Positions 25,041 to 63,762 of a stretch of DNA of 64,000 nucleotides are shown piece after piece (position 1 is the first letter of the stretch; every line of letters begins with the position of its first letter). The stretch is from Octopus vulgaris (Eukaryota): positions 101,432,001-101,496,000 of the forward strand of contig OX597820.1 in NCBI GenBank assembly GCA_951406725.2, read 5' to 3'. The notes below the pieces were generated by a model. It did not search any database, was not told the DNA's origin, and was given only the letters and a program-made list of their open reading frames with translations. Made by a program: the position numbers and the translations under genes.

Positions 25041-44177
<19,137 letters not shown>

Positions 44178-44609
44178 TTGTTTATGGAAATAAGACTTCT
44201 TTTGAAGGAAAAACGTTATTGATGAATGAAAAATTTTATTCTGTAGAAAGCTTTTTATTCTATAGAAAATTTAAACACTCGTCCAAATTCTATTTCAGTG
44301 CCACTATATTTTGTATACATTTTATTCTATTTTTGTTTTTTTTATAATTTTTTTTTCTGAAGTATATATTAAGGGTCCAAACAGATTTGCTAACCATTGT
44401 AGTTTGAACAATATATATATTATACATTGTATAGTTTTTATGGAGCAACGCGATTCTTTGAGAAATATATATACAAAATTATATATATATATATAATAAT
44501 TGATATAGGATAAAATTTTTTTTGGGAAAAAAATTTTATCAATGGCCAGCATATCAAAAAATGCCTTTAAAGGTAAAATTTATACATAATTTACAATTAT
44601 CTCGCGTAT

Positions 44610-44670
44610 TTGCCGCTGAAGAGGGGAAAATTTCTTGTGAATTAACCCCGAAATTGGACCAATACGGTAA
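44610..44670 (+). ncRNA. Minimal type I hammerhead ribozyme (Penelope-like repeat) in AK3 3' flank
   Basis: Stem I TTGCCG/CGGTAA, core CTGAAGA (44616-44622), stem II GGGG/CCCC with extension AATTT/GAATT, GAAA (44650-44653), stem III A-TTGG-A-CCAA-T, cleavage triplet AUA. Confidence 0.8.
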
Positions 44671-45543
44671 TAACAAATTTTTTAGAGATTTCTATCGGTT
44701 TGTTTCAAGATGCATAAATTTAATGGTTATCGACAATTTCGGCGTATCTGGCATTAGAATTTTTCTTCTGTCCTTATCTTGTAAATTATATATATATATG
44801 TAATTTTTGTAAATCATCTTGCCAGACATTCAAAATTTTGTAAACATTTTTTTCTGTTTTGTTTATGAAATCTAAGTAAAACAATTGTGTATTTTTAGAG
44901 ATCAGATGAAGTGTATTTTTAGAGATCAGATTTTTTTAGCTTTCACTGGTAAATGGTTCCAAGTCATGTGACTAAACTCAGAAAATGACATATCACAAGA
45001 AAAAACTTTTAAAAACTTTATCTTATATTTGTTTTAACAAATAGTTTATATATATTTTCACATGTATCGTATTTGATCTGCTACTTCAGTATTGGGTTTT
45101 AGGTTTTTTTTATTTTTTTATTTTTATGCTTTCAGATATATTCACTGGTTCTGACATATTGTCAGATCAATCGACTGAAGTTGAGCTTCCTTTTTCTTTT
45201 TCTATTAATTTCTTTAAAAAAAATGATATAAGGCCAAAAAAGATACAACTCTAAATGATGTAAGTTGAGGTATGACTGTATATTATTTTCACAGAGAAAT
45301 TATTCTGATTTTATATCAATAATACCAAACCATTATCATAGAGGTCTTCTCATATTGCCTATTTCTTGTCATTACATTCACTTATCTTACTAATATTTTT
45401 GGGAAAGGCATGAGCGTCATACAATCTTATTTCAACTATAAATATAAATATCTTTATGTGTATAAAAGATTGTTGTTATTGCTATTATTGTAGTATGCTA
45501 TAAGAACAAAAGTTAAAGTTCTTGGAAAGACAAAAACTGGTTT

Positions 45544-45613
45544 TGATATTTTGATTGACATAATGTTCACCTTATTAACAACCCTAGGAAAGGCATGATG
45601 TCACAGTATATCA
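45544..45613 (+). ncRNA. Candidate pri-miRNA hairpin (best copy of a triplicated unit)
   Basis: 70-nt hairpin with basal stem TGATAT/ATATCA, TGACAT/ATGTCA and a ~10-nt loop; its 3' arm TAGGAAAGGCATG is shared with neighbouring copies. Confidence 0.45.
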
Positions 45614-48600
45614 TTTACCTCATTTCTTAAGATATAACTTTGTTCTCATTCAACCTTCTTGTTATTGCTGTGGCAAACGTTGTTATAAGAGGTAAAATCT
45701 CACTGATCTAAGACTGTAGAGTGATTTTAATTTCTGGCTGAAGCCATTCTATTTTTCTTCTACCATTAGTGCCCTTAGGAAAGGCATGCTTCTCACAACT
45801 TCTCATTGTCTGCTTTTTTAAAATGCGGGACGCATGTGCTTTGTGGAAAAACTACCTCTAATATTCCATTAAATGTTATCTCTCTTGTGGAACAAAATAT
45901 ATTTTGTTGGACTCATGATTATTGATTAAATATGTTATATGTAATCTGAATTTGATGTTTGACAAGAATGGCTTCTCATATTTTGCTAGTGTGTGATTGA
46001 AAAGTACAAACATTATAACATTATAACATTTTATTTCTCCACCCAACAGATGTAACGCTTCATATTTGACTTAAAATCTTATCAGGTTTGACATAGTCAC
46101 TCATTTTTTGGGGAGAACGGTCAACAAGTATCAATAACACCCTGGCTCAGTTTAATTAATTACACAAATTTCCCCCTATATTCACTTTGTGGCTAAGGAA
46201 GAAATTATTATGTATGTTGTAGCAGGAGAATGGCAGTGGTCTTAAGAATATGCTGGATTTATTTGTAGCTTCTGTTGCTGACATTCAGCACAAGAAGCTT
46301 TATTGTCGATGTCTTGTATATCACTTCATCTTCAAGTGGTATTGGTATGAAACTATTCCTTTTAGATTGTAGACTCTGTCACTCATAATGTTTTTGTATT
46401 CTAGCAGTTATATAAAAAAAAAATGCAATGTTGTGATTATAAGAAGAAAAAAATGTAGGTGTGGAGGCTAATTACTTGATATAGTATTGAATTATTATTC
46501 ATTATGTATGCTTGGAAATCCAGCACAAACTTCAGTTGATTCTAATGAAGTAATTAAAGTTACAGTCAACTGGGCTTCAGAAGGGTTTTTTTAATATTTA
46601 TTGTCATATAGTACCAAATTTTGAGGTGAAGAGTATGCTTATTGTAAGAATTCTAGTAAGGGATTGGTAGACATGTTGTCAGTTTTGGTGTGATGGAAGT
46701 TAGTTTTGATTTATGCATAATTCAATCCCAGACAGTATAGATGGCCAAAAATAAACCCTGAAATGTATCGGGTAATCATTATGACTTTGTTAGGCCAGCA
46801 ACAAGTTATTGAGTTAATGAAGATTGTTTAAATCTATATAATTGTAAGAAAGAATTAAAATGTATGTTTTGTGGAAGAAAATTACAGAAATTATAAAACA
46901 GTAAAGTAAATCCCTTAGACATTACTGCTTTAAGTCCTAGGACTCATGGGGCTGGTATCTGGTGTCTATAGTGTATAAGTGACCGAGATTACAACATTTT
47001 CCCTGAATGGGATGCTAGTCCATTGCAGAGTTAGTCATGAACGAATGAGTGGACTGGAGCAATGTGAAATGATGTTTTTCTCAAGAACACAATGTACCGT
47101 TCATCTGGGAACCAAAACTATAATCCTGTAATCATGAGTGCCACACCCTAACTACTAGTCTACATACCTTCTGCTATAAAACTTGACAACTATAATAAGA
47201 CTAAACTCAAATGTATGCAGTTAATGAATGAGGCAAGTAGAGGTAAACTAGAAATTCCTATTAAGCTGTGGTCTGTGACACTACTGTATGTAATTCATGG
47301 AGATTTATAATTCTGTTTCTTTTTTTTTTATCACTGCCTTGAGAAAGGTCTGAATGTCTGTTGTACAACCTTTTTTCCATTCCTGTATAAGGTCTGATTT
47401 GTTTTTCCTATGAAAGGGATTATTATTATTCAAAGATCTTAAGGCAGCAAACTGGCGGAATCATTTGTGCAGCGGATAAAATGCTTAGTGGCATTTCTTT
47501 TGGCATTATGTTCTGAGTTCAAATTCCACTGAGGAGACGGCGACTTTGTTTTTGATCCTTTCATGGGTCAATAAGATAAGTACCAGTTGGTCACTGGGGT
47601 TGATGTAATTGACTTACCACCTCTCTCTAAATTTGCTGGCCTTGTGCCAAAATTTAAAATTATATTAACAGTGTTGAGCTGATATAATCGTTAGCATGCT
47701 GGACAAAAATACTGCTAAGTATTTTGTTTATCTTTACATTCTGAGTTCAAATCCTGCCGAGTTGACTTTGCCTTTCATACTTTCAGGATCAATAAAACAA
47801 ATACCTAAGCACTCGTGGGGTCAATGTAATTGACTAGCCTCTTTCCCCAAAATTTCAGGCCTTGTGTATAAAGAATTTTTATTATAGACTTAACTCCATT
47901 TGGGATATCCCAAGTAGACAATTCCTATTTCGTTATGTAAGTATATCAAATTTTCTGTCATGGAATTGTTTTAATGCAAGCAAAAGCTTTGTGTAACGCC
48001 TGATTCAAGCTTTCACTGAGATTCTCTGCAAAGATGTATAAGAAGCATGGAAATGGGTCTAGTTCACGAACAAAATGTTTTGTTCCTCATATCTTCCTAG
48101 CTAAGGCTAACGATAGGTTGATGATAAATACCTTTTAATATAGTCAGATTTCCTTAAATTTTTTTACTGAGGTAGAAACTTAAGAGCCTAATCTATTATC
48201 TTATATAGATTTTCCATCCATTTTGGGTGACTTTCTTGATCTTATACGGTTGCATATTATTTATGCAATTACTTTTTTTTTATATTTGTTAAATGTGTTT
48301 TCAATCACAAACCACTCAATCATGAAGCCAAGGAGTAAGGAAGACTAAGTTATGTCCCTTAACTCTAATATATATATATATATATATATAAAATTGAAGA
48401 AGAGTAGAAATTGATATTAATCAATTAAAACCAGTGGCCTAGCATATTAAAAAAATCCGAAGATTAAAATATTTTTTACATACAAAATTATATCTAGCAT
48501 ATTGACCGTCCACTTTTAGTGGTCAGTCCTTTAAATTATGTATATATATATATATATATATATATGAATATATGGAATTTGATTTATTAAGTATGAATAT

Positions 48601-48806: not shown

Positions 48807-49537
48807 TTAATCTTACTCTGCTATGTATTGAGTACCTTACTTACTGTGGTTAACCCCGAATCAACCCGGGACCTACATATATATATATATATATATATAC
48901 ACCATGGACTCTCCCATCTTTAGATGATGTACAAGGGTTCAGCAAGAAATTATCAAACAAACACACAGATGATTTGTTTATAGTGATCAAATGTTTGTGT
49001 TCACATAAGCTCATTCCCTCCATCAAATCGACATTACCTGTACAGGTGCACCATGTGCCACATGTCAGATAACGAAATAATCACAAAGCAATGTGAAATG
49101 TAGTGATTTGCTCAAGAACACAATGCAACGCCTGGCCTGGGAATCGAACTCATGATCTTGCAATCATCAGTGCAACACCCTAACCACTAAGCCATGCACC
49201 TTCACACACACATATATATTTATATTCATACATATCCTTCTATTTATAAACACTAATGATAAGGTAGCTACTGAAGGATCTGCTCTCACTGGCTGCTGCT
49301 GCTACTGAGGCAGTTTTTCATCTCTGATATTTATTCCGTTTTTTACACAGCATGTTCATAAGAGATGTTATTTTAGGACTAATATCAGATATATTTTTAT
49401 ATTGTTGAGCAGTATATTACTGATTATGGCATATAACAAATGTCTATATTCTGATTGATTATATATACAGTGTATATATACGTGTATGCTTCTTCCATGG
49501 GTATGAGTAAGTATCTCATTTACTTCTTTGCCACATG

Positions 49538-49596
49538 TATCACTGATGAAGGGAGGGTTCTTTTTGAACTAACCCTGAAATCGGTTTGATATGGTA
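49538..49596 (+). ncRNA. Minimal type I hammerhead ribozyme, paralog of 44610-44670
   Basis: Stem I TATCA/TGGTA, core CTGATGA (49543-49549), stem II AGGG/CCCT with extension GGTTC/GAACT, GAAA (49577-49580), stem III A-TCGG-T-TTGA-T, triplet AUA; downstream flank homologous to 44671-44800. Confidence 0.75.
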
Positions 49597-49753
49597 ATAA
49601 TGGAATTTTTTAGAGATTTCTGTTGGCCTTTTTTCGAGTAGTGTGCGTACTGGGGAAAAAAATTATATGGTAAATGGACAATATGTCCAATTTTCGGCAT
49701 ATTTGGCATTAGAAATTTTTTTTCGTTTGCCCTTATTTATAAGTTGTATATAT

Positions 49754-63702: not shown

Positions 63703-63762
63703 ATCACAAACCCGGTTTCATTGTTACCACTTACGTAAATGTCCGTAATTCATCAGTGTGAT
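63703..63762 (-). ncRNA. Minimal type I hammerhead ribozyme
   Basis: Minus strand reads AUCACA-CUGAUGA-AUU...AAU-GAAA-CCGGG-UU-UGUGAU: 6-bp stem I, intact core, very short stem III, GUU triplet. Confidence 0.7.

Follow-up and report, generated by a model that had tools for sequence, protein, structure and literature searches.

Does the messenger RNA of an octopus adenylate kinase gene cut itself? In the window, by which we mean the whole 64,000-nt stretch of Octopus vulgaris DNA that was analysed, a sequence-only reading had noticed an apparently intact hammerhead ribozyme on the sense strand, downstream of the stop codon of a gene that it called AK3. It proposed that AK3 transcripts may self-cleave there, as Clec2 transcripts of rodents can, which would detach the poly(A) tail or define a non-canonical 3' end. 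Our analysis supports that interpretation in part. The hammerhead is confirmed as a sequence motif whose cleavage is predicted, and it is probably inside the 3' UTR. Because the motif belongs to a repeat with hundreds of genomic copies, the most likely explanation is that it is a passenger: a copy of a non-autonomous, Penelope-mobilised retrozyme that cuts the AK3/AK4-type mRNA little or not at all (probability of about 0.8).

The motif (Table 1) has the invariant core of a type I hammerhead, CUGANGA, GAAA and UH, as seen both in the sequence and with a descriptor. According to the descriptor and to pair counts across two families, it also has the three helices of the class, and the strand ends lie in helix I. 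The first core element, CUGAAGA, is at 44616-44622 and GAAA is at 44650-44653. Stem I is formed by UUGCCG (44610-44615) and CGGUAA (44665-44670), with 6 pairs, 1 of them G-U; stem II pairs GGGG (44623-44626) with CCCC (44646-44649), and beyond it a 2x2 internal loop is followed by a 5-bp outer helix. Stem III is a palindrome, UUGG-A-CCAA (44654-44662) plus U44663, with a full span of 44653-63. The cleavage base is A44664, with the predicted cut on its 3' side. The core, the three stems and the position are all as first described, and the motif begins 433 nt past the end of the stop codon (44177), where about 430 nt had been claimed.

Table 1. Features of the window that bear on the hammerhead (positions are counted from the first base of the window).
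Feature	Position	Strand	Basis
Earlier coding exons, AK3/AK4-type gene	near 25539, 37940, 40334, 41403		
Last coding exon, AK3/AK4-type adenylate kinase	44063..44177, stop 44175-44177	+	motif scan; PDB match E 0.007
Weaker hexamers upstream of the hammerhead	AATGAA 44225; AATATA 44410 and 44464; GATAAA 44509		
Inverted 5'-truncated arm, unit 358-468	44484..44596	-	blastn, 95% identity
Sense 5'-truncated arm, unit 169-376	44598..44797	+	blastn, 93% identity
Type I hammerhead motif	44610..44670	+	sequence, descriptor, pair counts, folding
ATTAAA	45868 and 45925		hexamer scan
First AATAAA past the stop, candidate poly(A) signal	46750..46755	+	hexamer scan
Sister-family copy, 70% identical to the unit	49487..49752	+	descriptor, blastn
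Third hammerhead-like motif, different repeat family	63709-63760	-	

A descriptor with stems of 6, 4 and 4 bp, applied to both strands, had a single match in the window and none in 100 Markov-shuffled versions of it, while the loosest descriptor matched 3 times, compared to a shuffled mean of 0.04. A match to an Rfam model does not define a type I hammerhead; the class is given by the core and the helices. The Rfam models, which had been put forward as a check on the motif, gave no hammerhead: there was no match across the window at gathering score, and the hammerhead families had none in 44000-46500 at E<=10. A possible reason for the missing match is the length of the outer stem II. Also, the hammerhead is not the minimum-energy fold of 44600-44680, and the stability of that fold is no better than that of shuffled sequences (z -0.74).

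The sequence-only reading had spoken of a minimal type I motif with a palindromic stem III, as is typical of Penelope-like elements (PLEs) and retrozymes. The data agree with type I and with the likeness to these elements, but "minimal" is loose, as stems I and II are of canonical length. In the minimal hammerheads (min-HHRs) of PLEs, helix I is short, helix II is long with an extra 5' base, and helix III is absent or has 1-2 bp (PMC4209133). The motif here is not of that kind: its stem I has 6 bp, there is no extra base, and stem III is a 4-5-bp palindrome.

Three of the earlier exons of the host gene match Pfam ADK and ADK_lid, and the best PDB matches are AK3 and AK4. We call the gene AK3/AK4-type because the scores of vertebrate AK3 (66.1 bits) and AK4 (65.4 bits) are nearly equal; the earlier identification as an adenylate kinase stands, but the scores do not separate AK3 from AK4 (we write AK3 below for short). 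The hexamer scan bore out the earlier observation that there is no AATAAA from the stop (44177) to the hammerhead. Use of the first one beyond it, a candidate signal, would place the hammerhead in a 3' UTR of about 2.6 kb.

Sequencing runs suggest that transcription reaches this far. Among 24 rows of runs, whose kinds were guessed, 20 contained part of 44050-46400. Four of these (X1-X4, from one study, guessed to be RNA, with contigs totalling 96-109 Mb) contained 0.80-0.82 of the words of that stretch, shares that carry no information on strand, continuity or ends. Downstream of the element lies 67% of the stretch, and this is DNA without close copies elsewhere. Because most of the stretch is such downstream DNA, the locus is probably transcribed well past the hammerhead, if X1-X4 are RNA, and the hammerhead is therefore probably inside the 3' UTR. 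The shares are compatible with a whole transcript as well as with a 3' fragment: the value of 0.82 could be the sum of 0.74 (downstream) and 0.08 (the part of the repeat upstream of the cut), among many possible sums. (The probable 3' UTR also holds an old repeat just 3' of the element, at 44940-45290, with 68-78% identity to about 40 scored places.)

The hammerhead is one of many. We searched the genome (2.8 Gb in 227 contigs) with 44560-44720 and obtained 1598 candidates, of which 40 were scored and had 88-98% identity, self excluded. An exact 21-nt half of the hammerhead had 416 genomic matches (reversed control, 0). A pattern spanning this family and a sister family had 1518 (control, 0), or one per 1.84 Mb, and this is a lower bound because the copy at 44610 itself departs from the pattern. 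The sister family has 2303 genomic candidates and outnumbers the first family among the first 100 matches of the two-family pattern. Its copy in the window has a core that begins at 49543, a predicted cut after 49591, and a worn stem III.

With the motif on the minus strand at 63756, the 64-kb window holds three hammerheads from three repeat families (44610, 49543 and 63756). The third motif has a short palindromic stem III. Its family has 1163 candidates with 84-91% identity and also has inverted arms; among 8 loci, the core was present in 5, and no PLE frame was found nearby. Just past the end of the window (L153) there is a 78% match to positions 81-169 of the first family's unit.

What kind of element carries the hammerhead? 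The repeat unit is 465-468 nt, non-coding and low in GC, with one type I hammerhead each; none of the frames of at least 150 aa is contained entirely within it. (The reference unit was taken from locus L007, and arms were aligned to it with blastn; u376 denotes position 376 of the unit.) The copy in the window is a head-to-head inverted pair with TA-rich DNA on both sides. The inverted arm lacks the hammerhead and ends at the long 3' end of the unit (u465-468), at a TA-rich tract. The sense arm, a lone truncated monomer, holds the hammerhead and stops at the short 3' end (u376), where a short TA run follows.

The same two ends recur across the family. We examined 42 loci, mostly best-scoring matches and not a random sample, from which the self locus and overlapping duplicates (L015, L016, L017, L020, L082 and L138) were excluded. 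Of 96 segment 3' ends, 60 were at u456-468, 26 at u372-378 and 10 elsewhere. Short ends ran into TA-rich DNA in 21 of 26 cases; long ends continued into the first base of the next unit in 27 of 60 and into TA-rich DNA in 23 of 60. Both orientations were present in 24 of the 42 loci. In the natural tandem dimer L026, the two cores and cut sites are 468 nt apart, and by eye we saw 3 same-strand pairs at 465-468 nt among the first 100 listed matches to the 21-nt half. Tandem copies with two intact hammerheads are thus found in the family, although not at the window copy.

The published description of PLE insertions (PMC8557442) comprises partial tandems, a 5'-truncated copy in inverted orientation, microsatellite targets and, optionally, a tail, and in an anole PLE, two start sites of reverse transcription set the tail and both strands are cut at AT-rich DNA (PMC11167929). 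We found the partial tandems, the inverted 5'-truncated copy, the tail and the microsatellite target in the octopus family as well, although the tail is about 90 nt compared to the published 30-40 nt. As separate observations, all 13 opposite-strand pairs less than 1 kb apart among the first 100 listed 21-nt matches point outwards (minus then plus, by eye), and a B-box-like word near the start of the unit hinted at a tRNA-derived SINE.

We propose that such a copy would arise as follows. Tandem source copies would be transcribed, and successive hammerheads would pair via their palindromic stem III as a double hammerhead, which would release monomers of 465-468 nt, perhaps as circles. A Penelope-like RT/GIY-YIG protein would then nick TA-rich DNA on both strands, and reverse transcription starting at two RNA sites (u376 and u465) would yield two 5'-truncated arms that point outwards. 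This is the arrangement seen at 44484-44797. Once in an mRNA, the lone motif would have no neighbouring partner, and competition from its flanks is predicted to disfavour the active fold.

Of 57 extracted hammerhead copies, alignment A1 takes in 52 (32 of them distinct) and leaves out 5 that have indels; the structure scored on it is that of the window sequence. Pairing was found in 97.7% of 608 cells, as compared to 25-48% in slid controls. In each of four helices (stems I, II and III and the outer stem II), one pair is altered on both sides between the two families, and these paired changes are essentially single events, family 1 versus family 2. The number of covarying pairs was no better than in shuffles (211 of 500 reached it); the cell count exceeded the shuffles (0 of 500 reached it). 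Judged from this pairing, the hammerhead structure is maintained by the element, under selection.

Stem III is palindromic in both families (AUUGG-A-CCAAU in family 1 and AUCGG-U-CCGAU in the sister family). Its inner G-C pair is impossible in a hairpin and therefore points to a double hammerhead, a form that has been described for metazoan type I motifs, with a helix III of 1-2 bp in the dimer-dependent ones (PMC4209133). Indeed, two isolated 61-mers are predicted to fold as a double hammerhead (-35.3 versus 2 x -12.4 kcal/mol). The hammerhead looks as if it was built to act as a dimer. A monomer stem III of 4 bp with a 3-nt loop is possible, and by this fold some monomer cleavage could occur. 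The predicted probability of the active monomer fold was 0.044 for the isolated motif; with AK3 context it fell to 0.006 (103 nt) and to <1e-4 (201-479 nt), but this argument is weak because the same method under-predicts folds that are presumably active: it gave stem III 0.07 in the whole unit and the double hammerhead 0.02-0.05 in the natural tandem dimer. (The method ignores tertiary contacts and co-transcriptional folding.)

Could the passenger copy nonetheless cut a measurable share of AK3 transcripts, remove their poly(A) and lower AK3 output, either co-transcriptionally as a monomer or in a pair with element RNA? We consider this unlikely, although it is the alternative that survives best. 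The core and stems are perfect, but the active fold is predicted to be rare in context, and the intermolecular stem III has a probability of 0.00-0.02. The first AATAAA lies beyond the site, and the word shares of X1-X4 favour transcription past it (if these runs are RNA). Known relatives point both ways. In vitro, hammerheads from mussel and coral retrozymes are reported to cut efficiently as monomers, with a rate of about 0.1 per min for the mussel ones (PMC7229834). In contrast, single motifs of the PLE type gave no monomer cleavage (PMC4209133), 8 of 9 Xenopus retrozyme dimers were uncleaved (10.64898/2026.07.22.740005), and an anole PLE hammerhead site was without RNA-seq ends (PMC11167929). 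If the AK3 mRNA were cut, the importance of the locus would be greater, because a natural element ribozyme would be trimming a housekeeping transcript.

It is very unlikely that element RNA cuts host 3' UTR copies in trans, as a double hammerhead formed via the palindromic stem III. If true, a selfish family would, through trans cleavage, regulate AK3 and other copy-bearing genes in a dose-dependent way. We found no case of natural trans-cleavage of a host mRNA in the literature searched. A hetero-dimer of the AK3 copy with the sister-family copy at 49537 was not predicted, and between the AK3 region and the whole unit, the predicted pairing was via the antisense arm and not via stem III. That arm, at 44484-44596, is antisense to the element RNA over 113 nt. 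If the arm and the element are both transcribed, the predicted duplex between the two RNAs could expose the AK3 transcript to RNA editing or small-RNA silencing.

The passenger reading also holds that the unit is non-autonomous. We looked at 85 loci, some of them overlapping, with flanks of 1.5 kb, and at 4 longer stretches, and found no RT/GIY-YIG frame joined to the unit; there, the unit does not show the arrangement of an autonomous PLE, an RT and GIY-YIG frame between terminal repeats. The unit is probably non-autonomous, because its own start follows the long end directly, without a coding body. The genome does contain young autonomous PLE families. With blastn, the unit had no similarity to PLE terminal repeats beyond the TA-rich ends, in 30 loci of one family and in 33 loci of the same family plus a second group (two PLE groups were compared; PLE candidates number thousands, and the best 150 per query were scored). 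It is therefore the insertion pattern, and nothing in the terminal repeats, that points to mobilisation by a PLE.

Judged solely on target and age, the strongest candidate source of the mobilising enzyme is a PLE family (L113, L114 and L115; G000 C1, C3 and C4) whose copies end in (TA)n and in some cases have a tail of about 45 nt. By eye, the family has a minimal hammerhead-like motif, with U for the first core C, about 200 nt past the stop. A second PLE group (L106-L112) has open frames of 976-1091 aa, and two of its members (L111 and L112) carry a hammerhead whose stem II is long and whose stem III is palindromic. We also considered spaced same-strand hammerhead pairs (L149-L151) as the ends of an autonomous element and rejected them: they are independent insertions or a duplicated pair.

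Alternatively, the repeat might be the pLTR of an unsampled autonomous Penelope-like family, with the copies as its truncated ends. The insertion architecture would be identical, many of the thousands of PLE candidates lie outside the best 150 scored per query, and 5 of 85 loci have a PLE fragment no more than 1.5 kb from the unit. However, microsatellite or other DNA lies between the unit and each of these 5 fragments. Furthermore, in 27 segments the unit start comes straight after the 3' end with no body between, and the 5.4-kb same-strand pair at L149 encloses only an opposite-strand PLE fragment. This makes the pLTR origin highly improbable, and we retain the view that the unit is a non-autonomous retrozyme.

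Has the AK3 copy been adopted by its host gene? Compared to the column majority of the family, it differs at 1 of 61 sites in the motif and at 5 of 112 outside (p 0.43), a comparison of low power for one young copy. Its overall divergence from the family majority is about 3.5%, and the family median is 3.3%. Across 47 copies, there were 87 differences in 2864 positions inside the motif and 212 in 5595 outside (p 0.08). In copies that were fetched by another part of the unit, the core and stems were intact in 17 of 26. Thus, there is no sign of local selection at the AK3 copy, which appears to drift like the others. At a density of at least one copy per 1.84 Mb, some UTRs should be expected to contain a sense copy.

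That the hammerhead was domesticated, as a conserved regulator or an alternative AK3 3' end like that of Clec2, is the least probable reading of all: the sense orientation, the probable 3' UTR position and the intact motif would fit, but the divergence is that of an ordinary copy, the motif shows no excess conservation, unselected copies are equally intact, UTR copies are expected by chance and are reported for Xenopus retrozymes (10.64898/2026.07.22.740005), and the Clec2 ribozyme is a discontinuous type III hammerhead kept across mammals (PMC6155905, PMC2950038). The proposal of AK3 self-cleavage as a Clec2-like feature of the gene is therefore not supported, in view of the hundreds of near-identical copies, the lack of extra local conservation and the apparent dimer-like design.

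The passenger retrozyme adds a further family to this class of elements, apparently the first noted in cephalopods: we found no cephalopod example in the literature searched (main texts, with few subscription papers), and a 2026 ribozyme preprint does not mention octopus, mollusc, retrozyme or Penelope. With its clear Penelope-type insertion signature, the family lends support to a recent suggestion that the enzymes of Penelope elements carry animal retrozymes along. A further implication is that an intact UTR hammerhead in such a genome is to be expected by chance, with three hammerheads in one 64-kb window.

The element most closely resembles the non-LTR retrozymes of animals. As in those, the unit is AT-rich, has no coding function, measures a few hundred bases and contains a single type I hammerhead; the element also occurs as monomers and dimers, and it shares its genome with autonomous PLEs (PMC7229834; 10.64898/2026.07.22.740005). 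There are two related families, as in mussels (PMC7229834), and occasional 3' UTR copies, as in Xenopus (10.64898/2026.07.22.740005). The unit of 465-468 nt compares to retrozyme RNAs of 170-400 nt and repeats of 150-450 bp (PMC7229834; 10.64898/2026.07.22.740005), although consensus lengths reach 972 bp in the preprint (10.64898/2026.07.22.740005). In contrast to those retrozymes, the octopus copies, known here from DNA, are mostly dispersed, truncated and inverted, and the arrays seen have at most about 3 units.

With endonuclease-bearing PLEs, the family shares the partial tandems, the inverted 5'-truncated arm, the two 3' ends, the TA-rich targets and the palindromic stem III (PMC4209133; PMC8557442; PMC11167929), but the unit has no RT/GIY-YIG frame and its tail is longer, about 90 versus 30-40 nt (PMC8557442; PMC11167929). 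Its hammerhead differs from the PLE min-HHRs in the 6-bp stem I, the 4-bp stem II without an extra base before it, and the longer stem III (PMC4209133). Finally, the Clec2 hammerhead is also on the sense strand and downstream of a stop codon, in the 3' UTR, but it is discontinuous, type III and conserved, and it lowers reporter expression by 80%, whereas the motif here is type I and multi-copy (PMC2950038, PMC6155905).
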